Source: Candidatus Firestoneibacteriota bacterium
GTDB taxonomy: Bacteria; Oederibacteriota; D2-FULL-39-29; JBDRBU01
Direction: 5' to 3'
NCBI GenBank assembly: GCA_043822305.1
Contig: JBDRBU010000107.1
Coordinates: forward strand, 1-54,859
Length of the DNA stretch: 54,859 nucleotides
The notes under the pieces were generated by a model that was not told where the DNA came from, searched no databases, and was given only the letters and a program-made list of their open reading frames with translations. The position numbers and the translations under genes were made by a program. Shown piece after piece: positions 317-31,579 of the stretch (its first letter is position 1; each line of letters starts with the position of its first letter).

Positions 317-1924
317 TCACTGTCCCAAATTTTTTATCCTTTTGTAATTCTCTTTTGCTTCAAACTGATCCGGGTTTATCTGTAATGCTTTCTTATAACT
401 TTCTAACGCTTTGGCGATATCATTTAATTGGAAATAATTATTTCCCAGCATAACATACGATTCCACCTTGCTTTCATTATGACTGATTGCTTTCAAACAG
501 TACTCCAAAGATTTCTTATAATCTTTATCTTTATAACATTTCAGACATAAACCATAATAAATATTAGATATTTTTTCTTTTACCATTAGAATAGAATTTC
601 TATCCGGATGCCAGTTTGCTTGAGGATAATATTCTACAGATTTTTCATAATGCTGTAATGCTTTATCATTCTCTTTAAGACTCTCGTAATATTCTCCAAG
701 ATTATAATTCGCCCTGACATTATCCGGTTGATATTTTAAAACAACATTCCATAATGAAAAATTATCCTTCCAATCATAATTCCGGCTAAAAGTAATCATT
801 CCAAAAATAATTAGAATAACAGAACCAAGAACTAAGAGTACCGTATTGCCAAAATTTCTAAATTTAGGGTAAATCCATATGGCTAAAATACTTAAACTAA
901 TAGAAGGTAAGTATAAAAACCTTTCTCCTATCAATGTTCCAATTGATATTATGTTAGAAACCGGTAAAATTGTAATAAAAAACCAAATTATTGAAAATGA
1001 TATTATTTTTTGCTTATCTTTAAATCTATAAGCAATAAAGAGCAAAACAACTATTAAAATAAGTGGAATAAAAACATCTAATTTAAACAAGGAATTACCC
1101 AGAGGGAAATCACTATAATCAGGAGTTAATGGGTATGGCCAAAACAAGAGTTTTAAATAGTGTCCTAAAACCTGAAACACTATAAATATTCTTTGGGGAA
1201 AATTTTGCTGGCTCAATATACCAGTTTGATGAGCAGATACTAATCCACCTAAGACTGTAGTTCTTATAATGAAATAAATGGCAATAACAATTAAAAATCC
1301 AATATAGTGTTTTTTTTCGCATTTCTTTTTAAATATAAACTCAGATGAAAACAAGACTAAAGGTAAAGTTATAGCCATTTCTTTTGAAAGTAAAGCCAGA
1401 AAAAAAGTTATAAGACAACCGAAGTATTTATTTTTAATATACAGCCACAATGTTAAAAGATAAAAAAATGTTGCGAGTAGTTCAGTTCTACCCACAATCA
1501 TATTTACGGCCTCAGTATGAACAGGATGGAATGAAAACAATAAAGCAGATAGTAGGTAGTAAGTCGAAGGTAAAGATTTAAAAAAACTAACTAATATTAA
1601 AAACAATAAGACTGAATTTAAGTCGTTTAATATTATATTTGTAAGGTGAAAGCCAAAAGGGTTATGGCTCCAGATAGCATAATCTATTGCAAATGAACTA
1701 ATAACCAATGGCCTGTATAAAAAAACTCCTTTTCCATATGGAGTATTTGCCCAATAGTTTGAGACAAAAATCTTTGGAAGATTACCAAGATTTCTTATTA
1801 AGGCATTACTCTCTACAATAGGTTTGTCATCCATTAAAAAAATATTCTGTAAAGAATTAAAGTAAATCAGTGTTGAGAGTAAAAATATTATTATACAAAT
1901 GCAAACAGATTTAGATAGATTCAT
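317..1924 (-). CDS. TMTC-like GT-C membrane glycosyltransferase (putative protein O-mannosyltransferase) with C-terminal TPRs
   Basis: FLMDD acidic pair after TM1, then YRPL, FHLTN, LFxFHPVHTEAVxxIVGRTELL, SKE, LTPDYS and GERFLYLPS; multiple TM helices followed by TPR repeats. Confidence 0.85.
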   Translation of the reverse strand: MNLSKSVCICIIIFLLSTLIYFNSLQNIFLMDDKPIVESNALIRNLGNLPKIFVSNYWANTPYGKGVFLYRPLVISSFAIDYAIWSHNPFGFHLTNIILNDLNSVLLFLILVSFFKSLPSTYYLLSALLFSFHPVHTEAVNMIVGRTELLATFFYLLTLWLYIKNKYFGCLITFFLALLSKEMAITLPLVLFSSEFIFKKKCEKKHYIGFLIVIAIYFIIRTTVLGGLVSAHQTGILSQQNFPQRIFIVFQVLGHYLKLLFWPYPLTPDYSDFPLGNSLFKLDVFIPLILIVVLLFIAYRFKDKQKIISFSIIWFFITILPVSNIISIGTLIGERFLYLPSISLSILAIWIYPKFRNFGNTVLLVLGSVILIIFGMITFSRNYDWKDNFSLWNVVLKYQPDNVRANYNLGEYYESLKENDKALQHYEKSVEYYPQANWHPDRNSILMVKEKISNIYYGLCLKCYKDKDYKKSLEYCLKAISHNESKVESYVMLGNNYFQLNDIAKALESYKKALQINPDQFEAKENYKRIKNLGQ

Positions 1925-1969
1925 ATCTTCGCTTTTTTCACTTTCTTTACTTTCCTTGCTTTTTTTACT

Positions 1970-4216
1970 TTATTTGCTTCCTTTTACTCTTTGTAAATTA
2001 ACTTTTGCATCACGAAAATCAGGTTTTATTTTCAATGTTTTTTCCCATAATTCTATTGCTTTCTCTTTATGACCACTTAAAAAATAGGCCACGGCTATAT
2101 TATTATACGCTTCAACATAATCGGGTTTTAATGAAATCGCCTTTTCAAATGATGATATTGCTTCTTTAAAATCATTAGTCTCATTATAGGCCACACCTAA
2201 ATTATAATATGAATCAGGATTACCTGGATTCATGCCAATAGCCTTTAATAATTCATTAATGGCTAATTCAAAATCTTTATTCTTAATATATAAATTACCC
2301 AGATTATTACAAGCATCTGAATAATTAGGGTTAATTCTCAAAGCCTCCCTATATTCTTTGATAGCATCTTCTATCATTCCTTTTTTACTTAAAGATAACC
2401 CTAAATTATAATGTGCAACCGCCGAGGATGGATTCGCCATTATGGCCTTATTGTAATTTTCTATAGATTTATCAATTAATCCTTTAGTTTCATAAATTAT
2501 ACCAATATTATTACTAACCCATGATATATCGTGGCCTATCTCCTGTGCTTTATCAAACATCCCAAAGGCTAAATCATCCTGTTTTTTCTCAAAATAATAT
2601 TCTCCCTGTGAAAAATAATATTGGGCCATGATATCTCTGACAAGATATTCTTTATATATTTTTTTATCTTCTATCCCATCAAAATTATAAATTTCAAAAT
2701 AATCTTTATCTGTTTTTTTATTTAAGGCAAACATTATACCCGTTAACTTTGCTTTATCTTTCATCCATTGATACATACTGCTTGTTCTTAAAAAATAAAC
2801 AGGTCTTTGTGTCGTATTCACCATATTCATCTGAACCTTTTTTCTTCTTTCCTGATGTTCTTTCATGCTTAATTTTAACATATCATCCCTGTATATATTC
2901 TCAAATACACAACCTAAATCCTCGTAGATAGTCACATCTTCTCTTACACCTTCTACTTTTTTAAAATAGGCAAGTATAAATACTTCATTATCCTGAGATG
3001 CAAACAATATAGAATTTTTCTCTGGGGTTTTTAACATATTTATCCCGTAATTATAGGCTATGTAATTCTTGCTTCTATCATTTTCAAAATAATTAAATCC
3101 TAAAGGCAACAGGAAAGTGAAAGAAGTGAATAAAGTGACAAAAGTAGAAAAAGATTTATTTTTAAACAATGCGATAAAATAACAAAAACCAAAAAAAAGC
3201 CAGATAGCAGAAACCAGATAGGCGGGAATATAAAAAACTTCTATCACCTCTAAATCATTTCTATTCATTTTAGGATTTATCAATAAAATCATAACAATAG
3301 TAAAAGTTAAAAAAATAAATAAAGTATAAATAAATATCTTTTTATTATTCTTATATAAATAAAATAAACCTAAAATTACATACGGAACAAGAAAAATAGT
3401 AAACTGGGAAATGTATGTTTTAAGAAAAGTTAAAATCTGTTGAGAAAATAAATATAATGTTATTTCTCCTTTGGCAAACCCTCCATACTGTTTTCTAAAA
3501 ACTAAATCTAATAATCCCTGCCAAGAAGTAATATTTCCCCAATTCATAGACGGATTAGAGATGGCTCTAATTGGTAAATATAAATAAAATGATAATCCTA
3601 TTAAAAATAGTAATACTATCTTCCAAAAATTCTTTACAAGCAAATCTTTCTGCCAAAAATATAAAAAGATAAAAGAAATTACAACTATGGCCAAGGATGT
3701 ATGATGGTTAGTTAAAATCAGTCCAGAAAATAAGGCAAAAACAAGTAGAGAAGCACCATCTTTATTAAATATAATCCTTAAAAACAAAATTAAAAGTATA
3801 ATCAATAAAAATGAGTTTAAAGTGTAAATTCCGCCTTTGGCTATAACACTTTGACACCAGAAAGTCCTGGAAAAAGCAAAGATTAAAGAAGTGGAGAAAG
3901 CGAGAAAAGTGGAAGAAGTGGATAAAGTAAAGGAAGTGAAAAAAGTAGATAAAGTGAGAAAAAATATAAGTACTGTGGCACTACCGAAGAATACAGCAAC
4001 AAGATTTACTCTATATGCAATATTACTTAAAGGTAAATATGTAAAAATTTTCCCTAAAAAACAATATAAAGGATATCCGGGAGGATGAGCAATTCCCATT
4101 GAATAACAAGCAGCAATTATCTCCCCGCTATCACCAACATATACGGAGGGACAAATTGTTGATAAATAAACAATAAGAACAACCACTAACAAAAGAATTG
4201 CAGATAAATTTTTCAC
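1970..4216 (-). CDS. TMEM260/DUF2723-family GT-C glycosyltransferase with long TPR array
   Basis: GDSGE and IAHPPGYPLY motifs, NHH, YLYLPIRA, many TMs, ~7 TPRs. Start placed at GTG 4216 (GTGA overlap with the upstream stop) rather than 4246. Confidence 0.85.
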   Translation of the reverse strand: MKNLSAILLLVVVLIVYLSTICPSVYVGDSGEIIAACYSMGIAHPPGYPLYCFLGKIFTYLPLSNIAYRVNLVAVFFGSATVLIFFLTLSTFFTSFTLSTSSTFLAFSTSLIFAFSRTFWCQSVIAKGGIYTLNSFLLIILLILFLRIIFNKDGASLLVFALFSGLILTNHHTSLAIVVISFIFLYFWQKDLLVKNFWKIVLLFLIGLSFYLYLPIRAISNPSMNWGNITSWQGLLDLVFRKQYGGFAKGEITLYLFSQQILTFLKTYISQFTIFLVPYVILGLFYLYKNNKKIFIYTLFIFLTFTIVMILLINPKMNRNDLEVIEVFYIPAYLVSAIWLFFGFCYFIALFKNKSFSTFVTLFTSFTFLLPLGFNYFENDRSKNYIAYNYGINMLKTPEKNSILFASQDNEVFILAYFKKVEGVREDVTIYEDLGCVFENIYRDDMLKLSMKEHQERRKKVQMNMVNTTQRPVYFLRTSSMYQWMKDKAKLTGIMFALNKKTDKDYFEIYNFDGIEDKKIYKEYLVRDIMAQYYFSQGEYYFEKKQDDLAFGMFDKAQEIGHDISWVSNNIGIIYETKGLIDKSIENYNKAIMANPSSAVAHYNLGLSLSKKGMIEDAIKEYREALRINPNYSDACNNLGNLYIKNKDFELAINELLKAIGMNPGNPDSYYNLGVAYNETNDFKEAISSFEKAISLKPDYVEAYNNIAVAYFLSGHKEKAIELWEKTLKIKPDFRDAKVNLQRVKGSK
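3888..3959. repeat. 9-bp minisatellite, 8 units of RAAGTRRAR, inside the TMEM260-like CDS
   Basis: gaagtggag aaagcgaga aaagtggaa gaagtggat aaagtaaag gaagtgaaa aaagtagat aaagtgaga. Other arrays lie at 1932-1970, 3114-3153, 33580-33615, within grpE and at 48913-48966. Confidence 0.8.
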
Positions 4217-5637
4217 CTTATAATATAATCTTTTATAATTGTCCATCCTGATTTAATATTACGCTTTAAATCATTAAAATTTCTGATTATTCTAACTCTA
4301 CTTAAAATATATTTAAACCTTAAATAAAATTTCCTGAATGCTCTTTTTGACATTTCATCCAAATCTTTTTTATTTAAACCGCTGGGTATATACGAAGGCA
4401 AATATTCTTCCCCTCTCATATATCTTCTCCAAACTAAAGGATGCTTTATTATCCCTTCTTTTATTGCTTCATCACAGAGAATAGACCCAGGTAATATAGT
4501 CGTAATATAAAAAGCAGCATAGTTTGGAGATAATTTACAAGTAAATTTTATTGATTCTTCCATCTCTTTAATTGTTTCTGTTGGATGACCAAACATAACA
4601 AAAGCATTTGTCTCCATACCTAACTCATGACACCATTTAAATGCTTTTATATAATCTTCATTTTTTACTTTTTTATTAATTAAATATCTAATTCTCTCAG
4701 AACCAGTTTCAACTCCAAATGATACTTTTATACAACCTGAATCTTTCATAACCTTTAAGAGTTCAGCATCCACTAAATCAGCACGAGTCTGACAACCCCA
4801 AGACACCTTTATTTTTTCGTCAATAACCTTCTCACAAAACTGCCTTGTTCTGTCCTTATTAAGCGTAAAGGTATCATCCTCAAAGTTTATATATTTCACT
4901 TCATATTTATTGATAACTTCTTTAACTTCTTTTATAATATTCTCAAGACTTCTAACTCTATACTCTTTACCAACCGCTGGTCTAGAACAATAAGCACAAT
5001 TAAATGGGCAACCTCGCGCAGTAATCATTGAAGTAATCCTTCCACTTATCACTGGACTAAAGTATTTATCATTATCAATTAAATCTCTTGCTGGAAAAGG
5101 TAAAGCATCTAAATCATCAGGTACTTTCTTTTTATTAATTTTAATAATTCCGTTATTATTGTACACTAACCCATCTATTTCATCGAATTCACCCTGATCT
5201 CTAACGAGTCTTTTACACAACTTAAGAAATCCATATTCCGCTTCTCCAATAAAACCATATTGGACATCCATATCTTCTATAATTTCCGGGTCTATGGATA
5301 TATGTGCTCCTCCAAGGACTATTTCACATTTAATATTTTCACTCTTTATTCTTTTTATAATTGAATAAACTGTTCTTATCAAAGGAGTAGTCACAGTAAT
5401 ACCAACTATAAAAGGTTTTTTATCCTTAATAATATCAATAATATTCTCTACATTTAACATTTCAACAGAAGCATCAAGAATTTCAACAGAAAAATTTTCT
5501 TTTTTCAGGAAAGATGCAAGATAACCTAAGCCAAGATGTGGATACCTTACATAAAATCCGCCTTGTTTTTTTTTACTTTTTAATTTTACAATCTCTGTAA
5601 AACTGTATGGAGGGTCTATGAGCAAAATCTCTGGCAT
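4213..5637 (-). CDS. B12-binding domain radical SAM protein (class B methyltransferase-like)
   Basis: N-terminal PHLGLGYLAS...VLGGAH...GEAE cobalamin-binding domain; RGCPFNCAYC (CxxxCxxC); EDDTF; GVETGS. Confidence 0.9.
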   Translation of the reverse strand: MPEILLIDPPYSFTEIVKLKSKKKQGGFYVRYPHLGLGYLASFLKKENFSVEILDASVEMLNVENIIDIIKDKKPFIVGITVTTPLIRTVYSIIKRIKSENIKCEIVLGGAHISIDPEIIEDMDVQYGFIGEAEYGFLKLCKRLVRDQGEFDEIDGLVYNNNGIIKINKKKVPDDLDALPFPARDLIDNDKYFSPVISGRITSMITARGCPFNCAYCSRPAVGKEYRVRSLENIIKEVKEVINKYEVKYINFEDDTFTLNKDRTRQFCEKVIDEKIKVSWGCQTRADLVDAELLKVMKDSGCIKVSFGVETGSERIRYLINKKVKNEDYIKAFKWCHELGMETNAFVMFGHPTETIKEMEESIKFTCKLSPNYAAFYITTILPGSILCDEAIKEGIIKHPLVWRRYMRGEEYLPSYIPSGLNKKDLDEMSKRAFRKFYLRFKYILSRVRIIRNFNDLKRNIKSGWTIIKDYIIR

Positions 5638-5677
5638 ATTTAATATTTCTCACAAATTAATCTTATCATGTTCTTAC

Positions 5678-6760: not shown

Positions 6761-6804
6761 TTAGATTATCTCCTTATTAGATGCATTTTTGCGTTTTATT
6801 AAAA

Positions 6805-7458: not shown

Positions 7459-7483
7459 CTATTTTATCTGGGAGTGCCAAGAA

Positions 7484-7534
7484 TACCCCGTCTCTTGAGA
7501 CTGGGTGAACCCTGCACCATATTGATACAGGGTA
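7484..7534. repeat. Two adjacent short palindromes (ACCCCGTCTC..GAGACTGGGT and AACCCTGCACC..ACAGGGT)
   Basis: Imperfect inverted repeats in an intergenic gap. The second resembles the in-frame element at 15167..15193. Confidence 0.6.
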
Positions 7535-8472: not shown

Positions 8473-8473
8473 A

Positions 8474-10185: not shown

Positions 10186-10214
10186 ATTCTTACCATCCCT
10201 CTTTAACATTTAAA

Positions 10215-12918: not shown

Positions 12919-12922
12919 ATTT

Positions 12923-13996
12923 TCACCCAAAAATATATTTTATTCCCACCTTAAATAGAGCGGGATAACTCATCATAATATTTGTGTAGGCCATATTGGC
13001 CAGCGGGCAGTAGCAGGAAGTATTTTTTATATCTTCCCTTAATTTTTCGGCTCTTTCACCCATCCAGATTTTTTTAAAGTTAAAACCAGTATCTCTTAAG
13101 TTACCTATGGACTCTGCTTTTACACAGCAGAACCACACATTCCCATCCGGCGTAATATGAGCTGTCGTAATTCCAGCATAACAAGGGATAATTTCTTTTT
13201 TTTGAATTATACTTCTCTTTAAAATATTATAGTATTCTATCCTTATGGCTTTGGTTAACCTTCCTACACCCTGAAAGTGCTTTGCGTTAATCTCGCCTAA
13301 AAGAAAATCTATAACTCCGATATAATCCCTCTCTTCAGGAACAATATCCTTGTCTATAGTCATAAGCTCGTTTCTTTGCTCGGCTATCTCCGTAATATAC
13401 GAATCAGGATTAAGTTTAATAAGTTCGAAATAAATCTCCTTGAATCTTTTCACATTAAACCGAGAAATTACAGTATGAATGCCAACACTTATATTTTTGG
13501 TTTTTATCTCTTTTAACTTTTTCAGAACATCGACCGACTTGTTAAAGTTACCTTTCACCCCTCTTATTTCATCGTCCATTTCGCCTATTTCATCTATGGA
13601 CAGATTGAAAATAAACCTTGAATCCGGGCACGAGCGAACCATCTCTTCGGCTTTTACCGGAATAATATCCGATAATATTCCATTAGTTGGTATATTTATA
13701 ACCTTTGGTCTGCATCTTCTATAAAGGCTTTTAATTATTTCGGTGATATCTTTTCTTATAAACGGCTCTCCTCCGCTTATTGTAACCCAATATGGAGAAC
13801 TGCCGAGCGAATTGAATGTCCTGTCAAACTCCTCAAGAGTAAGATCATCAGATTTCCTGTCCCAGACATAGCATGTCTTACATCTTGAGTTACATTTAAA
13901 AGTAACACTTATCGTGTAGCTGAAAGGCATCATCTTCGGCCAGCCGAATCTATAAAACGACTTATATAGAGGTATTTTCAATCCTATTTTAATCAT
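12923..13996 (-). CDS. Radical SAM protein with SPASM/twitch-like C-terminal Cys motif
   Basis: CNSRCKTC, ISGGEPF, PTNG, CYAG...PDGNVWFCC...CYCP. Start at ATG 13996 (ATGA overlap). Confidence 0.88.
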   Translation of the reverse strand: MIKIGLKIPLYKSFYRFGWPKMMPFSYTISVTFKCNSRCKTCYVWDRKSDDLTLEEFDRTFNSLGSSPYWVTISGGEPFIRKDITEIIKSLYRRCRPKVINIPTNGILSDIIPVKAEEMVRSCPDSRFIFNLSIDEIGEMDDEIRGVKGNFNKSVDVLKKLKEIKTKNISVGIHTVISRFNVKRFKEIYFELIKLNPDSYITEIAEQRNELMTIDKDIVPEERDYIGVIDFLLGEINAKHFQGVGRLTKAIRIEYYNILKRSIIQKKEIIPCYAGITTAHITPDGNVWFCCVKAESIGNLRDTGFNFKKIWMGERAEKLREDIKNTSCYCPLANMAYTNIMMSYPALFKVGIKYIFG

Positions 13997-21473: not shown

Positions 21474-21800
21474 TCACTTGTATTCATACATAAAACCCTG
21501 TTTCTCTAATATTATTCTCTTCTTTTCAATATTTCCTAAATACACTCGCATCAGGCTTTTCCAAAGTTTTCCATGATTGGGAACACGAAAGTGCAAAAGT
21601 TCGTGGATAATGACATATTTGCCTGCAGACTTATCCATCTTAAGAAGGTTAAGGTTGAAGTTCAAGTTGCCTTTGGTGGAGCAGGATGCCCACTTGTTCT
21701 TCATCAGACGGAATTTCATGGACTTAACTTTAACATCTATTTTATCGGCAAACTTCTTAACTTCTTTTTTAAACTCGTCTCTGTTCTTCCACTTACGCAT
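21474..21800 (-). CDS. M48/YgjP (DUF45) metallopeptidase-like protein, short form
   Basis: MKNKWASCS..G.LNFN..L, YVIIHELLH...NHGKLW; lies directly downstream of hsdR. Confidence 0.85.
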   Translation of the reverse strand: MRKWKNRDEFKKEVKKFADKIDVKVKSMKFRLMKNKWASCSTKGNLNFNLNLLKMDKSAGKYVIIHELLHFRVPNHGKLWKSLMRVYLGNIEKKRIILEKQGFMYEYK

Positions 21801-21811
21801 ATTAATGCCGC

Positions 21812-24724
21812 CTAATTTCCTATATTTTCCGCATCTTCCAACAATTTGAACAAATACTCAACGGTGTCGGTATATTTATCCATATCATCTTCAATAGATG
21901 CCAGATACAGCGTTATATCTGTTCTTAATTCTCTTTTTTCCTGCTCGCTCTTCTGCCAATTGGGATATTCGTCAAATATCTTTTTAATTTCTTTTGTCGT
22001 TTTATCTGGGTCTTTTATCTTTTTATCCGTAAGAACCGTGTTCACAAAAGCCGACATTCCGTCAAAACCCTTTGCTTCCATCTCTTTCTTTTGCTCTAAA
22101 TGGGTTTCAATTGCAGAGTATAATTCATCAAGAATATCTTGCGTTTCTTCCTGTCTGTCTTCATACAGTTCCTGTATTGCTTTTGCCCTTGCAGATAAAG
22201 AAATCAACAATAAATCGTCAGGATTATCAATAACATACTTTTCAATGCTCTTAACAAGGTTAATAACTTTTGTATTATTGTTTTTACCTTTTTCTTTTAT
22301 TTTTTTTAAAGTGTTTTCATTTATCTCGTAGATGTCCATTCCTCCGTGCAAGTCATAAAGTCCTATCTTCTCCTGAATCAGATTCTTGGTCTTTTGCAGA
22401 AATTCCCTGTCAACACTGGCTCGCTTAAAGAAAGCATTTAAAACAATATGATAGATTTGTGATAATTTGCTGTAGTCATTAATATAGGGTCTTAAAAAAG
22501 CATCTGGAGAGATTATCTCATACAGGGCTTCTATCTCTTTGTAAAACTTGCGAAACCCTTCCCTCTTTGATTTATCCTTGAAGTATTCTATAATTGCATC
22601 GGTATCCTTATCAGTAAATCCGTATTTTATAAGTCCAAGATACCTTGCCGATTCTTTTTTCATCTTTGTCTCAAACAACTGTTTTAGTAAACCGATGTCC
22701 TTTATTACCGCATTTACTTCGTCAGAATCAAACGCCAATGCCTTTTTTAACTTATTAAATATTCCGATAAAATCCAGAACAAATCCGTGCGGCTTTTTAA
22801 CCTCTTTACCGTCTTTGTCTATTTCATAAGGTCTATTTACCCTTGCTATTGCCTGAAGTAAAGTATGGTCTCTCATCGGCTTATCAAGATACATCGCATA
22901 AAGAATCGGAGCATCGTAACCAGTGAGTAGTTTATCGGTAACTATGAATATTTTTGGTAATTTATCGGGCTTAATGAATTCCTTCCTGATTTTCTTTTCC
23001 GCCTCTTTAGTAATATGATGTTTTTTGAGTTCTTCCGAATCATTATTATTACCTGTATATATAACACTGGAGTATTCTTTAGGCAGGTATTTGTCCAATG
23101 CCTTTTTATACATTGCACACGCTTCCCTATCTACTCCAACCATAAACGCTTTATATCCAAGCGGCTCAACATTATCTTTGTAATGCTTCGCTACAAACCT
23201 GGCGACTTCATCAACTCGCTCCTTCCCTTTGAGGAATGTCCTGGTGTTTACCGCCTTCTCAATGACTCGATTTAATTCATCAATATCACTTATACCTTCT
23301 GCCTCTGCTAAAGCAAGAAATTCCTTTTCTAATATTTCTTCTGGCACAAGCAAGTCATTAGGAGCCAAAGCATAAAATAACGGCAGGGTTGTGCCGTCTT
23401 TAATGGAATCCGCTATTGAATACTTATGAAGGTAACCTTTCTTATCATCTATACCAAAGATCTTAAAAGTTCCTTTGCCGTGTGCAGTATTGTCAACTGG
23501 GGTGCCAGTAAATCCTATAAAAGAAGCATTGGGAATAGCAGCCATCAAGAAATTCCCCAAATCTCCTTGGGTAGTCCTATGTGCTTCATCCACAAGAACA
23601 TAAATATTCTTTCTCATATTTATATTGGCAGGCATATCAGCAAACTTATGAATCATACTCACAACAATACCCCTAAAATCGTCCTTCAATAGTTTATTGA
23701 GTTTTGTTATACTGCCCGCTTTCTCGGCGTGTTCAATTCCAACAGAATGCAGATTTCTGATTAACTGGTCCTCAAGTTCATTTCTGTCAATCAATAAGAT
23801 AATCGTCGGCTTTTCTGCTTCTGGTGCTTTAAAAAGCATCTCTGCTACTTTTATCATAGTAAATGTCTTGCCGCTTCCCTGGGTATGCCAGACCAACCCT
23901 CTACATCTTTCTTTGTCAAGAGCCCTTTCAAAAACAAGTTTGACTGCTGCTATTTGGTACTGCCTTAAGATGTATTTATTAAGTTCCTCGTCTTTTTCGG
24001 AAAAGATTATAAAGTTTTTAATGCAGGACAAGATATGTTCTTTAGTAAAGAAGGTCTTAACCTTACTCTCAAGTTGTCCGATTTCTTCTTCTTTCCAGTT
24101 AAAAATATTCCTTCTAACCATATTCCAAGTAACCCCATAAGAAAATCCAAGTGATTCCGTCACAGTAAACATCTGCTCTGACACCATCATCTCTGGTGTT
24201 TCCCTGTGGTAACGTCGTATCTGGTCAATACCAAGGGCTAACGCTTCTTCCTTTGTAGCATTCTTGCATTCAATCACTGCAACAGGAAGACCGTTAATCA
24301 GAAATACAATGTCTTCACGATTCCCGTATTTACCGTTAGAATAATAATACTCGTCTGTTACTTGGTAGGTATTATTCTTTGGATTATCAAAATCTATTAA
24401 TATAAGGTTTGGCTCTCGGTTCTCTTTTTTGCAAAAAAATGTTTTTTCACCTCTTAAGTATTGTAGAAATTCCCTATTGCCGTGAATATTGCTTTTAAGA
24501 GTGCTTAAGGTCTTTATTAGGGCTTCTTTGGATTCATCATATTTAGGATTAAACTCTTTTACTTTCTTATAAAACAGGTCAACAAAGAATAGCGATGGTT
24601 CCGTGCCATAAGGCACAGGAACAATCTGCCGATATTTTTCGGCAGTTTCCCTGTTTACATACTCCCAGCCCAATTCCTGGACATATTTTAATATAGGGTT
24701 TTGAACCCCGCCACGTTCACTCAT
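21812..24724 (-). CDS. hsdR: Type I restriction endonuclease subunit R
   Basis: DIVFLINGLP..IECK nuclease motif, WHTQGSGKT Walker A, DEAH, FTGTP, LLTGYDAP, QAIARVNR. Confidence 0.95.
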   Translation of the reverse strand: MSERGGVQNPILKYVQELGWEYVNRETAEKYRQIVPVPYGTEPSLFFVDLFYKKVKEFNPKYDESKEALIKTLSTLKSNIHGNREFLQYLRGEKTFFCKKENREPNLILIDFDNPKNNTYQVTDEYYYSNGKYGNREDIVFLINGLPVAVIECKNATKEEALALGIDQIRRYHRETPEMMVSEQMFTVTESLGFSYGVTWNMVRRNIFNWKEEEIGQLESKVKTFFTKEHILSCIKNFIIFSEKDEELNKYILRQYQIAAVKLVFERALDKERCRGLVWHTQGSGKTFTMIKVAEMLFKAPEAEKPTIILLIDRNELEDQLIRNLHSVGIEHAEKAGSITKLNKLLKDDFRGIVVSMIHKFADMPANINMRKNIYVLVDEAHRTTQGDLGNFLMAAIPNASFIGFTGTPVDNTAHGKGTFKIFGIDDKKGYLHKYSIADSIKDGTTLPLFYALAPNDLLVPEEILEKEFLALAEAEGISDIDELNRVIEKAVNTRTFLKGKERVDEVARFVAKHYKDNVEPLGYKAFMVGVDREACAMYKKALDKYLPKEYSSVIYTGNNNDSEELKKHHITKEAEKKIRKEFIKPDKLPKIFIVTDKLLTGYDAPILYAMYLDKPMRDHTLLQAIARVNRPYEIDKDGKEVKKPHGFVLDFIGIFNKLKKALAFDSDEVNAVIKDIGLLKQLFETKMKKESARYLGLIKYGFTDKDTDAIIEYFKDKSKREGFRKFYKEIEALYEIISPDAFLRPYINDYSKLSQIYHIVLNAFFKRASVDREFLQKTKNLIQEKIGLYDLHGGMDIYEINENTLKKIKEKGKNNNTKVINLVKSIEKYVIDNPDDLLLISLSARAKAIQELYEDRQEETQDILDELYSAIETHLEQKKEMEAKGFDGMSAFVNTVLTDKKIKDPDKTTKEIKKIFDEYPNWQKSEQEKRELRTDITLYLASIEDDMDKYTDTVEYLFKLLEDAENIGN

Positions 24725-25749
24725 TTTTTGTCCTCTTTGATAAGTCTTAAGATTTGTTTTTCACGGTCTAATTCATTTATTAATTCTTTTTTACTTGGCA
24801 GATAAAGTTTGTACTTAGAAGCAAATAGTTTTTTATTATCTTTCAGAACCGAGTATTTAACAACTGTTTCATCTTTTTCAGTACACAGAATAATGCCAAT
24901 TGTAGGATTGTCATCTTTGGCTTTCATCTTATCTTCAAACAAACGAACATACATATCCATTTGTCCAATATCTTGGTGAGTAAGTTTTTCAGTTTTTAAG
25001 TCAATCAATACAAAGCATTTCAGTAAGTAATTGTAAAATACAAGGTCAATATAGAAATGCTGTGTTTCTGTTGAAATTCGCCGTTGTCTGGCAACAAAAG
25101 AAAACCCACGGCCTAATTCCAGGAGGAACTTCTGAAGATGATTAATTAATGCCTGTTCAAGGTGGCTCTCTTTTAGATTAGTATTTTCTTGAAGCCCTAA
25201 GAATTCCAATACAAACGGATCCTTAATTTGGTCCTCGGGTTTTATACTCAACTGTCTTGCTCTTGTATCTGCTTCTTGTTTAACTGAAGTCTTATTTTTG
25301 CTTGTCAGAAGACGTTCATAATAAAAAGAGTTGATTTGTCTTTCCAACTGCCTTGTACTCCAATTTGCATCAGCACATTCATTAAGATAAAATGCCCTGT
25401 TTCTATCATTGTCCACCCGTAATAATAACCGATAATGCGTCCAACTTAATTCTGAACGCAATGCGTTCACTTTTGGGAACATCACATAAAATTGCTTCAT
25501 AAAATATAAGTTTCTTTCATCAAATCCCTTGCCAAATTCTGCAGTTAATCGTTTTGAAAGGTCATCGATTAAATATGCCCCATATTCAGCACGTTTTTCA
25601 CCTTTCTGTTCTTCTTCTACAATTAACCTACCTATGTTCCAATAAGCAATAACCATCGTGGAATTAACAGTTCTATAAACATTATTCCTTGCTTCAACAA
25701 GGATTTTTCTAACATCAGAGTAAATATCAGTTCTTTTTGGTTTGTTCAT
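24721..25749 (-). CDS. YhcG/DUF1016 PD-(D/E)XK nuclease domain protein within the R-M cassette
   Basis: YWNIGRLIVEEEQ, LSWTHY, KDPFVLEFL, ELGRGFSFVARQ, DIGQMDMYV. Confidence 0.92.
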   Translation of the reverse strand: MNKPKRTDIYSDVRKILVEARNNVYRTVNSTMVIAYWNIGRLIVEEEQKGEKRAEYGAYLIDDLSKRLTAEFGKGFDERNLYFMKQFYVMFPKVNALRSELSWTHYRLLLRVDNDRNRAFYLNECADANWSTRQLERQINSFYYERLLTSKNKTSVKQEADTRARQLSIKPEDQIKDPFVLEFLGLQENTNLKESHLEQALINHLQKFLLELGRGFSFVARQRRISTETQHFYIDLVFYNYLLKCFVLIDLKTEKLTHQDIGQMDMYVRLFEDKMKAKDDNPTIGIILCTEKDETVVKYSVLKDNKKLFASKYKLYLPSKKELINELDREKQILRLIKEDKK

Positions 25750-25770
25750 TGTTTTTGCTCCTATAATTTA

Positions 25771-27039
25771 TTATGCAATTTTTAAGTCTTTCACCCGTAT
25801 TCGTCCAGTCATTAACTGATGAAGCATTGATTTGAAAAGAGACTGCAAACAATCTTTTCTTTTTATTGTAATCAATACCTTCTCATCCAATTGCTTTAAA
25901 ATACTTGATATTTCCTTTTGCCCTTTTATTGCTGGAAAAGGTATTTTCATTTCTCGCACGTTATCATCTCTAACCGCAGGATAACTTGCTCCTGTCTGCA
26001 ATTTACCAATCTCTTTTATAAAAGAATCTGTTATCAAATATTGATAAAGAAACTCGTAGTCAAGTCTACTTTCATCTGCCCTTAAAACGCAAAAAGCAGT
26101 GCTACAATATTCATTATTATATTCGCTTCCTACTTTTGCAACACGCTTTAAAGTAGGTCTGACTGTTGCAAATATAACATCGTTTGAATAAATAATTTTT
26201 CTCGCTCGTCCAGGAGCGTCTTTTCCAAGAAAAACTTGATGCCCTATTATAGAAAATATTTCATTTGAGACACTGGACACATCTACATACTTTATTGATT
26301 TTGACAGCTCTTTTTCAGGATTCTTTGTAAATGTCTCTCTTATCGCATCTTTTATTTTCACCACTTTCCAACTTTTGGGGATTTTGCCGATTTCGGTGTT
26401 TCTCTGCGGCTCATCGTAAAGCCCTTCGGCGAATAATTTCTGCATCATGGCTTTCTTTAGTTCTGTCGTGGTCTTAATAATTTTCTCCTGCGTCTCTATG
26501 GCTGATTGAATTTTGGAGAGAATGTAAGAAATATTTGATTGCTCAAAAATAGGAGGTAAAGGTATATTTATGTTTTGAATATCAGAATTATTTACTGCTT
26601 TTTGAGTACTACCGTGTGCAAGACTATCTTTAAATTTACCAAAATAATCTGAAAGAAATATTTGTTTTAGGAATATTGGATTTACTTTACCAGAACAAAC
26701 AACCCCTGTAAAACCTGTTGAAAGTATATACCTGTTTATTTCAGAGATATTCTCTTTTGTGAACGAATATACTTTCAAAGTATTTTTCATCTTTGCAAAC
26801 CAAACAGAATCCATCTTTGGTTGCATATTCGCTCTTAGTGGTCTGTTTTTAAATGTAATTTTGCATTCAATATTACCAATCTTATTGTATTCAATTGATG
26901 ATGTTGACAAGTAATCTTTCTCTTTTGAAAAATTATCAATACCACTGCTCAATATTGCAAATTTTTTTTTATCTCCCAATTTTACCAATTCCCACTCCTC
27001 TGGTATCAACCCTATTTCAGTTTCTTTAAATCCTTTCAT
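25771..27039 (-). CDS. hsdS: Type I R-M specificity subunit S
   Basis: Two repeats of TEIG.IP..W + TRD + IP(L/F)P..(E/G)Q..I..IL; ends LHQLMTGRIRV. Confidence 0.93.
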   Translation of the reverse strand: MKGFKETEIGLIPEEWELVKLGDKKKFAILSSGIDNFSKEKDYLSTSSIEYNKIGNIECKITFKNRPLRANMQPKMDSVWFAKMKNTLKVYSFTKENISEINRYILSTGFTGVVCSGKVNPIFLKQIFLSDYFGKFKDSLAHGSTQKAVNNSDIQNINIPLPPIFEQSNISYILSKIQSAIETQEKIIKTTTELKKAMMQKLFAEGLYDEPQRNTEIGKIPKSWKVVKIKDAIRETFTKNPEKELSKSIKYVDVSSVSNEIFSIIGHQVFLGKDAPGRARKIIYSNDVIFATVRPTLKRVAKVGSEYNNEYCSTAFCVLRADESRLDYEFLYQYLITDSFIKEIGKLQTGASYPAVRDDNVREMKIPFPAIKGQKEISSILKQLDEKVLITIKRKDCLQSLFKSMLHQLMTGRIRVKDLKIA

Positions 27040-27042
27040 CTG

Positions 27043-28617
27043 TTAATACCCCAACTTTTTTAAAATATCTTTCAGGTCTTTGTCTATTATCTTGGATTCG
27101 ACATCAAGTTCGTTTAATTCCGATACTATTTCCCCTATTGGTCGGTATTCTTCCGCTTCCGCAGTGTGAATATACCTTGACGGAGAAATATTGTAATCAT
27201 TCTTGATAATCTCGTCTTTTGTAACCACCTTGCTAAACTTTGCTGTCTCTTTCCATTTTAGAAATACATCCACAATCTTTTTCTGATTCGCTTCAGGGAT
27301 AAAGTTCTTCGGGTCACCTTTTTCAAATTCAAGAGAAGCATTCACAAGCAGAACTTTATTCTTTCTGTCTTTTGATTTAATTTTATTTACAAAGACAACT
27401 ACGCCAGGTGCCGTCGTATTATAAAAAAGATTCTCCGGCAAATATAAAACACTTTCAATAAAATCATTATCAACATACCACTTTCTGATTTCTTTTTCTT
27501 TATTGTTTCCAGCATTGCCAGAACCTCTTGATACTGCTCCAGTATCAAGAACAACAGCAGCTCTGCCGTCATCTTTTAAACTCGCAAAAATATGTTGCAT
27601 CCATCCCCAGTCAGCACTACTCGTAGGTGGAATACCTGCATTAAATCGTTCCAACTCGTCATTTTCATAATCATTTTGTTCAAAACTCTTCTGGTTCCAC
27701 ATAGGATTGGTCATAACCAAGTCAAAAGGTTTTAATTTACTCCCTGATTTAAATCTGGGGTTTTTCATTGTGTCGCCGATTTCAATCTTCCCTTCCATAT
27801 CGTGAATGACCATATTCATATTTGCCATTGCCCAAGTCGGAGCAGTATACTCCTGACCATAAAGAGCAAGCGGAGCATATTTACCCTTCTTGCCTCCCAT
27901 TTTCTCCTGTAATGCAATCTGGCTTTTTACAAGAAGTCCTCCAGAACCGCAACAAGGGTCATAAACTTCCATCCCTGGCTCGGGGTCAAGTATCCTCGCC
28001 ATTATCATTCCGACTTCCGCTGGAGTATAAAACTCTCCTGCACTCTGCCCACTGTCTTCTGCAAACTTTCTAATAAGATATTCATAACTTCTGCCTATAA
28101 TATCTGGCTCCACATCATCAAGCCCAAGCCGTTTTAAGCTCATTTTTTCAATGAGTTTTATTAAACTCTCTTCCGTAATATCCCTTTGTCCGTGGGTAGT
28201 TGCATTAAAGTCAATTCGGTCTATAATCCCCTGTATTCGTTCATTATGTTTCGCAATATCTCGCATAATACTGGTAAGTTTCTCGCCGACTTTATCAGTA
28301 AGCGTCCTGATTGCTGACCAAGTATCATCTTTTTCAATATCCTTGGCTCTCAAAGGTAAATAAAAACGAACAAGTTTCGGACTTTTTTCAATAAGTTTAA
28401 TCGCCTTGGATTTGGAATTACCGAACTTTGCAGCAATACGGTTTACCTCGTCATCAAAAACATCACAAAGCCGTTTCACAAACACTAACGGCAGGATGTA
28501 GTCCTTGTATTTGGACGCATCCTTCTCGCCCCTAATAACGCACGCAGCATCCCACAACCATGATTCCAAAGATTTATCTTCTTTGTTGTTATCTTCATTT
28601 ACCATAAATTCTCCCAT
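27043..28617 (-). CDS. hsdM: Type I R-M methyltransferase subunit M
   Basis: LESWLWDAA, YEYLIRKFA, GEFYTP, DPCCGSGG (motif I), NPMW (motif IV variant). Confidence 0.95.
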   Translation of the reverse strand: MGEFMVNEDNNKEDKSLESWLWDAACVIRGEKDASKYKDYILPLVFVKRLCDVFDDEVNRIAAKFGNSKSKAIKLIEKSPKLVRFYLPLRAKDIEKDDTWSAIRTLTDKVGEKLTSIMRDIAKHNERIQGIIDRIDFNATTHGQRDITEESLIKLIEKMSLKRLGLDDVEPDIIGRSYEYLIRKFAEDSGQSAGEFYTPAEVGMIMARILDPEPGMEVYDPCCGSGGLLVKSQIALQEKMGGKKGKYAPLALYGQEYTAPTWAMANMNMVIHDMEGKIEIGDTMKNPRFKSGSKLKPFDLVMTNPMWNQKSFEQNDYENDELERFNAGIPPTSSADWGWMQHIFASLKDDGRAAVVLDTGAVSRGSGNAGNNKEKEIRKWYVDNDFIESVLYLPENLFYNTTAPGVVVFVNKIKSKDRKNKVLLVNASLEFEKGDPKNFIPEANQKKIVDVFLKWKETAKFSKVVTKDEIIKNDYNISPSRYIHTAEAEEYRPIGEIVSELNELDVESKIIDKDLKDILKKLGY

Positions 28618-28673
28618 GCTTATTCTTTACTCTATGTCTTTAATATTAAAAAGATGATATTTCTTATCGCAAT

Positions 28674-30539
28674 CTATTTATTGGATATCAATGTCTTTAT
28701 TTTATCCAACTCAAATTCAATTTTCTCTGTTTCAGGATCGTTTGGACTTAATTTTAAATATTTTTCCCAGACCTCAACAGTTTCTTTGTATTTCTGAAAT
28801 TCATTAAGATAGACTATACCCAGATTCTTGTATGGAGAAGCAAAAGCAGTGTCTATCTTTATGGAATGTTGATATTCAGCAATGGCATAATCGTATTTTT
28901 TATAAAAATCATATGTCCAGCCCTGATTAAACCTTGCTTTAGCATATATAACTACTATTTCCGATTCAAATGAATCTGCATCGTAATACTTTGTCTCTAA
29001 TTTTCTATACTTAAAATTAAACCATATTTTATCATTTTCTGCTTTTACCTTCTCTATATCTATATAAGAATTACTCTTATATAAACATCTAAGCAATCCT
29101 TGTCCAAGCATAACATAATCAGTTTCTAAACTTTTTTCCCTTGGACCTGTTACAAAAATTCTATGTGAATCAAAATTACAATCCACTAAATCTTTAATAA
29201 CATGTTCTCGTCCATCATAATACTCGAACGGGATAATCAAATTTTTTTCTTGCTCTTTCTTTTGAGTAACATACCAGGTATAGGTTAATTTTTCCTGGTC
29301 CAACACTATGACATCTTTCTTAACCAATTCTACCATTTGCAAATAATCCAATCCCATACTTAATGTATCACCACTTACAATTAAAATAGAATTTGTTGGA
29401 TAACTTTTAATCATATTACCACAAAAATCATACAATAAATAATTATCTGATTTATTAATTCTATAATTTAATCCTATAAAAACAATTAGCAGTATTATTA
29501 AAACGGGATAAACATATTTAAAGATATGTAAAATACCTACACCGAAAAAAATCGCAAATATTAAAAATGAAACCAGATAAAGTCTTTGTAAAACATGTAA
29601 AACAATTTTATCGGAAGTATGACCCAAAAAACACACGAAAAATAATCCACTAAAAACAAAGGCAACTACAAGAAAATAAAAATATTTTTTTAAATTTTTA
29701 TAAGCAAAATAAATACCTGAAAGTCCAATTAAAAACCCGATAATTGTAAAATGTTTAATTAAAGATCTTAAATACACCCAAACTTGTCCATTATTTAAAT
29801 CAAAAAGATGTTCTACATGAAAACTCGTTTTCCCATAATCTGCCCTGGTAACCATATGAATAAAATTACTAAGATTAACAGGGTCATCCCAGTTTAATAA
29901 TGGTCTTAAACTGGCCGCGATAGGAAGATAAATATAAGGAAGTAAACCCAATGAAAATAAGGCCATGGCTTTAATTGGATTTATTTTTAAACTAAATCTG
30001 TTTTTATATAACAAATACAAAAATGCTGGGAATAAAAAAATGACACTAAGATGATGCGATAAACTTAATCCAAGTATAAACGAGAATAAATAAAAAAACT
30101 TTTCTTTTCTTGTTTCATCCCATATCATTAAAATATAAACTAACAAACATACAAAAAAATTATTTAAACCAAAGACTTCTGCCACAATTGAATATTCCCA
30201 GAATGTAGAGACAAAAGCAAGAAATACTGTTGAAAAAATCGACACAACTTCACTTTTAATTAATTTTAAAAGTATTTTATAAAATAATATCAAAGCTAAT
30301 ACCGAGAAGATAGCCGACATTATATTTATTCTATAAGCGATGCTAACTAATGGTAAAAATGTAAAAAGTTTTCCAAGTAAAGTATATAATGGATAACCGG
30401 GAGGATGAGCAATTCCCAAAACATATGGTGCAATTATCATTTCAGAACTATCACCAGTAGCCGTAATTGTAGACGCTAAAGTGATAATATAAACAGAAAG
30501 GATAGCCATAAAAACAATATAATAATATTTTTTATTCAT
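28674..30539 (-). CDS. TMEM260/DUF2723-family GT-C glycosyltransferase with short TPR tail
   Basis: GDSSE, GIAHPPGYPLY, AEVFGLN, SHH, PYIYLP; C-terminal TPRs. Confidence 0.85.
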   Translation of the reverse strand: MNKKYYYIVFMAILSVYIITLASTITATGDSSEMIIAPYVLGIAHPPGYPLYTLLGKLFTFLPLVSIAYRINIMSAIFSVLALILFYKILLKLIKSEVVSIFSTVFLAFVSTFWEYSIVAEVFGLNNFFVCLLVYILMIWDETRKEKFFYLFSFILGLSLSHHLSVIFLFPAFLYLLYKNRFSLKINPIKAMALFSLGLLPYIYLPIAASLRPLLNWDDPVNLSNFIHMVTRADYGKTSFHVEHLFDLNNGQVWVYLRSLIKHFTIIGFLIGLSGIYFAYKNLKKYFYFLVVAFVFSGLFFVCFLGHTSDKIVLHVLQRLYLVSFLIFAIFFGVGILHIFKYVYPVLIILLIVFIGLNYRINKSDNYLLYDFCGNMIKSYPTNSILIVSGDTLSMGLDYLQMVELVKKDVIVLDQEKLTYTWYVTQKKEQEKNLIIPFEYYDGREHVIKDLVDCNFDSHRIFVTGPREKSLETDYVMLGQGLLRCLYKSNSYIDIEKVKAENDKIWFNFKYRKLETKYYDADSFESEIVVIYAKARFNQGWTYDFYKKYDYAIAEYQHSIKIDTAFASPYKNLGIVYLNEFQKYKETVEVWEKYLKLSPNDPETEKIEFELDKIKTLISNK

Positions 30540-31579
30540 AATTTACTATATCGTGTAATAGTAGAATTAGGTCCCATGACTAAATTCCCTGATAAATAAC
30601 TAAAATCCCCTATATATGAATTATCAGATATAATACAATCTTTTAAAACACATCCTTCACCTACTTGGACATTATTCCATAAAATACAACCTTCTAAAAC
30701 AGAATTTTTTCCTATCAAACAATTCTTGCCTATAATAGAAAACTTTTTTACTATTACTCCTTCTTCTAAGATTGAACCATCACCTATATTGACTGGATTA
30801 AAAATTTTAACATTTTTTCCTAATTTTACATTTTTACTTCGCGTACCACCAGAGAGTGCGAGGTTTACCTTTAACCTTCCATTTAAAATATCATAATTTA
30901 TCTGCTTGTATTTTTCGGGTGTTCCAATATCTAACCAGTAAATATCTTTCTTTATATATCCATAAAAATTATTTTTTAATAGTTTTGGGAAAACATCTCT
31001 TTCTATTGAATATACTTTACTTTTTTTCATAAATTTTAAAATACAAGGTTCAATTAAATATACTCCAGCGTTTATGTTTGCTTTTTTCCCTGAAATTTCA
31101 TCCAAACTTGGCTTCTCCAAAAATCTTACTACTTCATTATTTTTATTAGTTTCAACCACACCATATGAGGAAGGATTTTCAACCGGGGTTAAGGCTAGGG
31201 TTAGATTGGACTTTTTCCTTCTATGAAATTTTATCATACTACTTATATTTAAATCTGTAATTATATCTCCATTCATAACTAATGTGGTCGCATCCATAAA
31301 TTTCTCTGCTCGCTTTATGGCTCCACCGGTACCTAAAGGTTTATCCTCATAGATGTATTTAATTTTCATTCCAAACATTTTACTGCCTAAAACTTTTTTT
31401 AACCTTTGAGGTAAATAGCACGCTATTAGAATTACTTCGTCTAGATTATAATTACTTAGCCATTTTAAAATATAAAATATTAAAGGCTGATTAACAACAG
31501 GAATTACAGCTTTAGAAACACTTAAGGTCAGAGGTCTAAGTCTGGTTCCTTCTCCACCAACAAGAATTACTGCTTTCAT
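30536..31579 (-). CDS. NDP-sugar pyrophosphorylase, mannose-1-phosphate guanylyltransferase-like, with hexapeptide-repeat C-terminus
   Basis: KAVILVGGEGTRLRPLT, E..PLGTGGAI, NGDI, YGVV, FLEKP, INAGVY, SIER.VFP, YWLDIGTPE. Confidence 0.85.
   Translation of the reverse strand: MKAVILVGGEGTRLRPLTLSVSKAVIPVVNQPLIFYILKWLSNYNLDEVILIACYLPQRLKKVLGSKMFGMKIKYIYEDKPLGTGGAIKRAEKFMDATTLVMNGDIITDLNISSMIKFHRRKKSNLTLALTPVENPSSYGVVETNKNNEVVRFLEKPSLDEISGKKANINAGVYLIEPCILKFMKKSKVYSIERDVFPKLLKNNFYGYIKKDIYWLDIGTPEKYKQINYDILNGRLKVNLALSGGTRSKNVKLGKNVKIFNPVNIGDGSILEEGVIVKKFSIIGKNCLIGKNSVLEGCILWNNVQVGEGCVLKDCIISDNSYIGDFSYLSGNLVMGPNSTITRYSKL

Follow-up and report, generated by a model that had tools for sequence, protein, structure and literature searches.

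Human TMEM260 (PDB entries 9rql, 9rqm and 9rqn) is a protein O-mannosyltransferase for IPT domains, and the animal proteins TMTC1-4 are O-mannosyltransferases of the GT-C type for cadherins (Pfam DUF1736). To our knowledge, the only established bacterial protein O-mannosyltransferases are the GT39 Pmt enzymes of the Actinobacteria. Here we describe two TMEM260-like proteins (P0003 and P0002) and one TMTC-like protein (P0001) encoded in a stretch of 54,859 bases, hereafter the window, which is contig C107 of a metagenome-assembled genome (MAG; G000, 2.15 Mb in 125 contigs, 96.8% complete). The nearest named relatives are MAGs of Candidatus Firestonebacteria (40-42% identity to P0003 and 52% to P0001). 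The three genes are part of a set of about 20 GT-C genes such as is usual in this candidate phylum, and do not form a dedicated locus. They add new members from an uncultured lineage to families already known, and there is no new system at this locus. The value of the finding is the residue-level case, built on sequence comparison, for P0003 as a putative working TMEM260-type transferase.

Two-step modules that work with a lipid carrier, and that pair a GT2 synthase with a GT-C enzyme, are exemplified by CsbB/YfhO and GtrB/GtrC. The actinobacterial Ppm1/Pmt system follows the logic that we consider here, from GDP-mannose via polyprenyl-phosphate-mannose (polyprenyl-P-mannose) to protein by an extracytoplasmic GT-C enzyme, as the accessible part of its description states (PMC5882110); the claim of the initial annotation of this DNA that such a pathway is undescribed in bacteria was hence too broad. 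Prokaryotic relatives of both animal families have also been mentioned before: the text available from PMC10214176 notes "distant homologs in bacteria" for TMEM260, and that from PMC7801869 "homologues even among prokaryotes" for the TMTCs. Database entries for such proteins read "DUF2723 domain-containing protein" or, where named automatically, "protein O-mannosyl-transferase". Our literature searches turned up no functional work on any bacterial enzyme of the TMEM260-like or TMTC-like kind; a figure of the TMEM260 preprint and the supplements of PMC7801869 may show bacterial homologues.

Active-site conservation in the TMEM260-like proteins

P0003 (28674..30539, minus strand) and P0002 (1970..4246, minus strand) are TMEM260-like GT-C proteins of a short "B" subtype and of an "A" subtype with a long array of tetratricopeptide repeats (TPRs), respectively. 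Both match Pfam PF11028 (TMEM260-like, formerly DUF2723; gathering cut-off 24.2 bits) far past chance level, with 111.8 bits for P0003 and 102.6 bits for P0002, and both carry the motif AHPPGYP, together with TGDSSE in the former and VGDSGE in the latter. The P0002 gene as annotated initially is real, but its end at 4216 is an internal alternative start, and the open reading frame (ORF) runs from 1970 to 4246. In a phmmer search of the PDB sequences, solved human TMEM260 (9rql) was matched by P0003 over residues 8-431 (E 7.6e-50) and by P0002 (E 4.7e-37), and in both cases the similarity spans the membrane core and the Rossmann-like domain.

The human structure of 2026 permits a comparison at the level of single residues. 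According to the accessible part of that preprint (10.64898/2026.03.17.711096), D52, H67, R264 and Y267 of human TMEM260 are essential, the mannose is contacted by D52, H67, Y267 and R355, D441 in the Rossmann-like domain is the catalytic base by which the acceptor Thr is activated, and E466 contacts the acceptor peptide. All seven of these residues are kept in P0003 in a HMMER alignment, as D30, H45, R232, Y235, R319, D391 and E416, respectively. P0002 retains the equivalents of D52, H67, R264, Y267 and D441, whereas that of R355 is not kept. When P0003 was aligned with 63 bacterial homologues, D30, H45, R232, R319 and D391 proved to be at least 90% conserved. The TMEM260-type assignment of P0002 and P0003 that the initial annotation had made thus holds down to the essential residues. 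Bacterial P0003 appears to keep the whole donor and base machinery, and so offers a concrete starting point for biochemical tests.

The AlphaFold2 model of P0003 (pLDDT 95.1, pTM 0.93) has helices up to about residue 360, strands at 385-488 and TPR helices at 524-620. These are the same three parts as in human TMEM260, where, as far as the source describes it, the membrane core is followed by an alpha/beta (Rossmann-like) domain and then by TPRs. The top matches of a Foldseek search with this model were PglB, STT3, ALG12 and ArnT. The function of P0003 is predicted from sequence and model, and it would differ from the human enzyme in its donor, which in a bacterium would be a polyprenyl phosphate sugar instead of dolichyl phosphate mannose.

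A further difference is that this genome holds nine full-length TMEM260-like paralogues against a single human protein. They form the largest group among its approximately 20 GT-C genes, the others being 2 TMTC-like, 3 YfhO-like, 5 PMT_2-type (one of which also passes Pfam PMT) and 1 DPY19-like; in addition there are 17 GT2 matches. By alignment, P0003 is the one of the nine whose active site comes nearest to that of human TMEM260. Seven longer proteins, P0002 among them, make up a subgroup whose members share 34-46% identity with each other and 27-30% with P0003. The equivalents of D52, H67, Y267 and D441 are present in all nine, which makes it very improbable that the paralogues, some or even all of them, lack catalytic activity and are TPR scaffolds or pseudo-enzymes, all the more as the catalytic motifs of the TMTC-like P0001 are invariant across 63 homologues. 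What speaks for such decay is a tenth, broken copy (C101:11911-12517), which consists of two fragments with frames of 88 and 136 aa and has a TAG stop inside its PMT_2 match, and the absence of the R264 equivalent, kept in eight of the nine, from the paralogue on C74.

The DPY19-like GT-C protein (753 aa; C34:27139-29400, corresponding to L095:4139-6400) matches most of the PF10034 model (Dpy19, a family of C-mannosyltransferases known from eukaryotes) with 90.2 bits against 27.2, carries C-terminal TPRs, and is encoded directly behind a TMEM260-like paralogue on C34. PF11028 matches are found in 29 of 31 related genomes, with 1-16 matches per genome, and in one of 14 control genomes; none of these 14 has a Dpy19 match. 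With the N-terminal 520 residues of P0003 as query, 16,651 cluster representatives were retrieved with the E limit set at 0.001 and 2,319 with 1e-30 as the limit, and by this measure the predicted bacterial TMEM260-like family is very large.

The TMTC-like protein P0001

The gene of P0001 (317..1924, minus strand; 535 aa) lies in tandem with that of P0002, which sits 45 bp upstream. Like TMTC1-4, the protein combines an N-terminal GT-C domain (approximately residues 1-390) with C-terminal TPRs, and the TPRs are its only Pfam matches. It carries the motifs LMDDKP (with D32-D33) and HPVHTEAV (133-140), and across 63 homologues, 16 of which match PMT_2, there is no variation at F29, D32, D33, R71, P72, H93, N96, H133, R146, K181, E182, P263, R335 and Y338. 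The public gene call (P0005, 505 aa) begins at M31, by which the first membrane helix is lost and the DD pair comes to lie at the extreme N-terminus. The long form is backed by a homologue of likewise 535 aa (P0006; 75% identity, full coverage).

The AlphaFold2 model of P0001 has a pLDDT of 93.3. In an exhaustive VIA-align search, residues 4-391 matched the GT-C folds of ArnT (Z 20.4, 328 residues aligned, root-mean-square deviation 4.5), Pmt1-Pmt2 (Z 20.1), AglB and ALG12 (Z 19.7 each) and Pmt4 (Z 19.4), all of them within about one Z unit, while plain Foldseek against the PDB put TPR proteins on top. TMTC chains were absent from the P0001 matches in the PDB sequence and fold searches, and the sole match of the membrane part among the PDB sequences was a chance one (superoxide dismutase, E 0.15). 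In a structure-Atlas search a eukaryotic DUF1736 cluster appeared at rank 17 with a score of 0.92, which is a lead only.

Seven TMTC motifs, M1 to M7, have been listed by Eisenhaber et al. 2021 in the part of that paper available to us (DD; SHKSYRP; RxD; KE(T/Q)xxT; DW; PxxP; ERxxY; PMC7801869). P0001 has M1 (D32-D33), M4 (K181, E182, T186) and M7 (E334, R335, Y338), and as in the TMTCs the DD pair after the first helix, YRP, a segment of the HPxHTE type, KExxxT and ERxxY are found in corresponding places. The same source models the TMTCs on ArnT, and ArnT and PMT, the closest solved folds for P0001, agree with what it gives for the TMTCs (PMC7801869). Three homologues with about 36% identity to P0001 pass the DUF1736 cut-off of 27 with 29.9-32.7 bits; these were the ones flagged beforehand for PF08409, three among 120 listed proteins.

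Proposed activity, acceptors and donor supply

We lean, with some reserve, towards the view that the span falls into three separate pieces and that its three TPR-bearing GT-C genes encode active periplasmic transferases of polyprenyl-P-hexose, probably mannose for P0003, with probably proteins as acceptors. The homology, the catalytic residues, the folds, the gene order in relatives and the presence of a synthase were observed directly; from these we infer which sugar is donated, what class the acceptor belongs to, and how the proteins sit in the membrane. Genes for the secretin PilQ, for PilMNO and for a prepilin peptidase lie at 48960-54640; being those of a secretin and of type IV pili, they point to an outer membrane and hence to a periplasm. 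The catalytic loops and the TPRs of the three TPR-bearing GT-C proteins would face this periplasm. With polyprenyl-phosphate-hexose as donor, each GT-C enzyme would transfer a single hexose, for which mannose is the best guess in the case of the TMEM260-like_B protein P0003, to a hydroxyl of an acceptor that its periplasmic domain holds. As with human TMEM260, this acceptor would most likely be an extended polypeptide.

The lipid donor would be made elsewhere in the genome. The initial annotation had seen no clear DPM1/Ppm1-type synthase in the window, and this is borne out: none was found there with Pfam or NCBIfam, the two GT2 genes being of other kinds. The genome-wide search for a polyprenol-P-Man synthase that it had suggested did yield a DPM1-type candidate at C67:18103-18813, whose best PDB match is the Pyrococcus dolichol-P-mannose synthase 5mlz (E 1.3e-35) and which passes no NCBIfam cut-off. 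On this contig (C67:17507-22627, locus L092) the synthase gene overlaps tyrS, and tyrS in turn overlaps the gene of a 667-aa GT-C protein of the PMT/PMT_2 type, which is followed by an SLT lytic transglycosylase gene. The synthase shares this operon with a PMT-family GT-C enzyme, a pair that is comparable to actinobacterial Ppm1/Pmt. It differs in lying outside the window, whose own enzymes are TMEM260-like and TMTC-like instead of GT39, and in its host, a diderm bacterium of a candidate phylum. A side observation is that a tyrosyl-tRNA synthetase gene separates the DPM1-like synthase from its likely partner transferase. Homologues of the synthase were found in 30 of the 31 related genomes, including all 29 with TMEM260-like genes; G020 has neither the synthase nor PF11028, and G028 has the synthase and no PF11028 match. 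This co-occurrence fits a dependence of the TMEM260-like enzymes on the synthase, with little power since the synthase is nearly universal.

This small genome joins homologues of PMT, TMTC, TMEM260 and DPY19 with one DPM1-like synthase. A more far-reaching reading is that the lineage performs extensive periplasmic protein mannosylation with these counterparts of four eukaryotic families, that the single synthase supplies them all with polyprenyl-P-mannose, and that the TPR array of each paralogue chooses its own exported proteins; we regard this as rather doubtful. If it were true, free-living bacteria would show a prokaryotic form of the mannosyltransferase set of the eukaryotic endoplasmic reticulum (ER).

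A number of observations weigh against the activity that we propose for the window's enzymes. Human TMEM260 (9rql) was not among the Foldseek matches of the P0003 model, presumably since the library searched does not contain it yet, and the equivalence of the residues is one of aligned sequences. The equivalent of R355, which contacts the mannose in the human enzyme, is kept in only one of the nine paralogues, P0003, so that the remaining eight, P0002 included, may use another sugar. In P0001 some of the TMTC motifs are altered: M2 is reduced to Y70-R71-P72, M3 reads R146-T-E148, M5 is D269-Y270 (DY and not DW), and M6 is unmatched. Pfam DUF1736 (PF08409) had no match in the membrane part of P0001 at E up to 10, nor in any frame of the whole genome at E up to 1. 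The initial annotation of P0001 as TMTC-like is therefore sustained as to the motif set on a GT-C fold with TPRs, and not as to the Pfam family; the likeness to the TMTCs is real, yet looser than the TMEM260 kinship of P0003 and P0002. Moreover, the best fold match of P0001, ArnT, acts on lipid and not on protein, and a weak NCBIfam match of P0001 (E 8.7e-7, below cut-off) is to a "cell surface glycopolymer formation protein".

These last two points suggest that the GT-C enzymes might instead decorate a non-protein molecule of the envelope, such as lipid A or the lipopolysaccharide core, an exopolysaccharide or capsule, or a glycolipid, and that the TPRs would dock to an export or assembly machine. 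We consider this a serious alternative, though an unlikely one. The lipid A transferase ArnT heads the fold matches (Z 20.4) in a tie with protein transferases. YfhO-like, GT2 and HpnJ-like or lipid-type B12 radical-SAM genes are found nearby, here and in some relatives, and YfhO-family enzymes are known to glycosylate teichoic acids. The peptide sequon of the human enzyme, furthermore, is not found in this genome. P0003 keeps, however, the equivalents of both the base that activates the acceptor Thr (D441) and the residue that contacts the peptide (E466), and its combination of an alpha/beta domain with TPRs corresponds to the "hand" with which human TMEM260 grips the peptide. Nine diverged paralogues with differing TPR arrays would also be easier to reconcile with many distinct acceptors than with a single polymer. 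Should proteins be the acceptors, as we propose, the family would represent a widespread new class of bacterial protein glycosylation and would inform the origin of the ER mannosyltransferases; if they are envelope lipids or glycans, the animal enzymes would have been recruited from envelope-modifying ancestors.

As regards the sequon, its core GP..[GA]GG..[TS] had no match in the 2,915 ORFs of the genome (mean of 0.1 in shuffled sequence), and looser forms gave 0 to 2 matches in these ORFs without excess over shuffled sequence, the sequon being a trait of the IPT-domain substrates of the human enzyme and not of the TMEM260 family. A search for cadherin domains found none in the genome. It does contain 22 TIG/IPT matches in about eight large ORFs on contigs C84, C20, C51, C17 and C18, at least nine of them in one open frame of 2,861 aa; just two of the 14 control genomes have TIG matches.

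The donor side provides further points against the reading. The initial annotation had pointed to a mannose-1-phosphate guanylyltransferase-like gene that overlaps the start of P0003. This gene, P0127 (30536..31579, minus strand; PF00483, 165.4 bits), does overlap P0003, by 4 bases, belongs to the cmk operon, and encodes a sugar-1-phosphate nucleotidyltransferase of the GMPPB type with a left-handed beta-helix tail. A specificity for mannose is not supported: NCBIfam man1P_GTase_Rv scored 229.5 bits against a cut-off of 440 and every other NCBIfam match is likewise below cut-off, while the PDB matches tie between 8x7s (labelled UTP-glucose-1-phosphate uridylyltransferase; 6.9e-48) and human GMPPB (7d72_K; 1.7e-47). 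Its orthologue is tied to cmk and HIT even where the TMEM260-like gene lies 1.5-6 kb off or is unlinked. A candidate supply route for GDP-mannose, or for another NDP-hexose, apart from P0127 is an 834-aa fusion of a GMPPB-like nucleotidyltransferase with a phosphohexomutase (C101:22806-26734, locus L096), behind which lies a second mutase gene. GalU and a glucose-1-phosphate cytidylyltransferase are encoded elsewhere in the genome, both above their cut-offs.

The membrane GT2 protein GT2b (P0125; 20258..21361, minus strand; Pfam PF00535, PF13641 and PF13506) has a membrane helix at its N-terminus and several at its C-terminus. In the PDB its best match is 6yv7 (E 3.3e-8), labelled "Glycosyl transferase, family 2", which we take to be an archaeal membrane GT2 enzyme that uses GDP-mannose. 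Its structural neighbours in the Atlas are CESA-like GT2 clusters (TM approximately 0.9), and GT2b is of the cellulose-synthase-like or Glyco_transf_21 kind, not of the DPM1/GtrB kind, which is a further point against the reading.

Surveys of neighbourhoods beyond the close relatives complete this side of the balance. For the TMEM260-like genes, 39 loci, picked by hand with four at most per genome from 14 further genomes of the phylum, were searched with only the glycosylation genes of this genome and the genes of the window as queries, so that other partners would escape. A DPM1-like neighbour occurred at none of the 39 loci, and about 25 of them had no neighbour from the query set at all. 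Tandem pairs of TMEM260-like genes were seen at six loci, a PMT-like or DPY19-like gene nearby at four, a YfhO-like gene at three, a P0127-like nucleotidyltransferase gene on the opposite strand at two, and an adjacent ALG5-like GT2 gene followed by a B12 radical-SAM gene at one. The sparseness of such neighbours indicates that most of these enzymes are encoded singly and rely on donors whose synthesis is encoded elsewhere.

For the TMTC-like genes, 80 metagenome loci were surveyed for neighbours within 5 kb (flanks of 2.5 kb or more on both sides in 33, on at least one side in 53). Eight of them had a DPM1- or ALG5-like GT2 gene, directly adjacent and co-oriented in seven. DPM1-like genes account for four of the eight (three directly upstream and co-oriented; two strong matches of 264-266 bits) and ALG5-like genes for the other four. 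A second TMTC-like gene was nearby at 18 of the 80 loci, and a TMEM260-like gene at only one; we therefore rejected the TMTC-like/TMEM260-like tandem as a general two-enzyme module, as it is kept only in close relatives.

Gene order in the window and in relatives

All ORFs described in the initial annotation exist on the minus strand, and the motifs LMDDKP, HPVHTEAV, GDS(G/S)E and AHPPGYP were confirmed. Its argument from "one co-oriented region", in contrast, carries no weight. The minus strand of the window carries every ORF of at least 200 aa, ORFs on the plus strand measuring 101-168 aa, and the GC skew is negative in all 2-kb bins across 1-54859 (the GC content of the window is about 31%). 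Overlaps are common as well: 14 of the 29 junctions among the 30 genes from 317 to 37823 overlap, and because several of these involve housekeeping genes, overlap is a weak sign of linkage in this compact genome.

The span of 31 kb had been taken as one co-encoded pathway, which fails on the restriction-modification (R-M) island and the unrelated genes in between and on the separation of the pieces in relatives. It would rather fall into three distinct pieces, within a compact part of the chromosome whose genes share one strand. The first would be the tandem of TMEM260-like_A (1970-4246) and the TMTC-like gene (317-1924), the second would run from GT2b via DUF362/ferredoxin, aconitase-family, YfhO-like and GT2a genes to radical-SAM genes, and the third would comprise cmk, the GMPPB-like nucleotidyltransferase gene and TMEM260-like_B (28674-30539). 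The TMEM260_A/TMTC-like tandem is kept in G002 and G010, and not in G012.

A type I R-M island (21474..28617, minus strand; YgjP-like, hsdR, YhcG PDDEXK nuclease, hsdS and hsdM, by Pfam) lies between the second and third pieces. The complete R-M system within it spans 21812-28617, with the YhcG nuclease gene between hsdR and hsdS, and the GC content of the island is 0.358 against 0.32-0.33 in the flanks. In all four Firestonebacteria contigs at hand (L018-L021) the genes for HIT, cmk, the nucleotidyltransferase, TMEM260_B, GT2b, DUF362-ferredoxin and aconitase are contiguous. Since the P0003 and GT2b orthologues adjoin there without the island, the latter is an insertion, which would have split an older gene order; it is part of no glycosylation system.

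This older order raises the question whether the nucleotidyltransferase, TMEM260-like_B and GT2b might form a self-contained module, split here by the R-M insertion, which would be a refined form of the initial annotation's pathway: the nucleotidyltransferase would produce GDP-mannose, GT2b would load the mannose onto polyprenyl phosphate, and TMEM260-like_B would carry out the periplasmic transfer. Their co-oriented contiguity in L018-L021, the GMPPB type of the nucleotidyltransferase, and the membrane helices and 6yv7 match of GT2b would agree with it. We nevertheless judge such a module to be improbable. The four contigs all stem from one genus and are not independent, gene overlap means little here, GT2b belongs to the CESA-like/Glyco_transf_21 group, and a true DPM1-like synthase is encoded elsewhere in the genome. 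Moreover, the parts separate in the sister family. There the nucleotidyltransferase gene remains with cmk and HIT, and the TMEM260_B orthologue is 1.5 kb (G006) or 6 kb (G004) away from it or unlinked in the fetched stretch (G002 and G011). GT2b stays with DUF362 on separate contigs, two of four of which continue through the aconitase, GT2a and radical-SAM genes. GT2b as the missing polyprenyl-P-mannose synthase was rejected for the same reasons, its CESA-like kind and its parting from the TMEM260-like gene in the sister family. We thus return to scattered GT-C enzymes supplied from elsewhere in the genome.

The YfhO-like gene and the two GT2 genes of the initial annotation are real. P0004 (14861..17191, minus strand), one of three YfhO-like GT-C proteins in the genome, matches PF09586 with 61.4 bits against a cut-off of 28.5, in two stretches of which the best is at the C-terminus only. 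GT2a (13993..14874, minus strand; PF00535, 79.2 bits) overlaps the P0004 gene. On C118, which holds two YfhO paralogues, an ALG5-like GT2 gene follows one of them, and both arrangements resemble the CsbB/YfhO or GtrB/GtrC modules. A difference is that GT2a reaches none of the NCBIfam cut-offs and cannot be assigned clearly to the GtrB type. In the relatives L073 and L074 GT2a follows the aconitase-family gene, and the sister family has GT2a without the YfhO-like gene.

The B12-binding radical SAM gene (4213..5637, minus strand; Pfam Radical_SAM and B12-binding) overlaps the start of P0002. Its best NCBIfam match is HpnJ, with 204.5 bits below a cut-off of 577.6, and a similar gene directly follows a TMEM260-like plus GT2 pair in L185. 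Of the gene order in this region, the part with GT2b, DUF362, aconitase, GT2a, radical-SAM/SPASM and B12 radical-SAM is kept in the sister family.

By Pfam and NCBIfam, the genes that separate the glycosyltransferase genes of the window are, besides the R-M system, the B12 radical-SAM gene, two YhcG nuclease genes (the second at 5678-6760), two methyltransferase genes, a LamG-like and a CsgG-like gene, two DUF362 genes, a radical-SAM/SPASM gene and an aconitase-family gene. Many of them form an overlapping string at 9250-21361, which consists of GT2b, DUF362/ferredoxin, aconitase-family, YfhO-like, GT2a, radical-SAM/SPASM, an unknown gene, methyltransferase, DUF362 and CsgG-like. The aconitase-family protein in this string (648 aa) matches NF005558 above cut-off with 963.8 bits, and such an aconitase-type enzyme is a puzzling member of this block. 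Finally, genes of the defence or mobile type occur amid housekeeping genes at 38125-44136, namely those for an AbiEii toxin-family nucleotidyltransferase with an unknown gene upstream, a PRiA4_ORF3-like protein, and a Schlafen/AlbA_2 protein with a HATPase_c_4/HTH partner.

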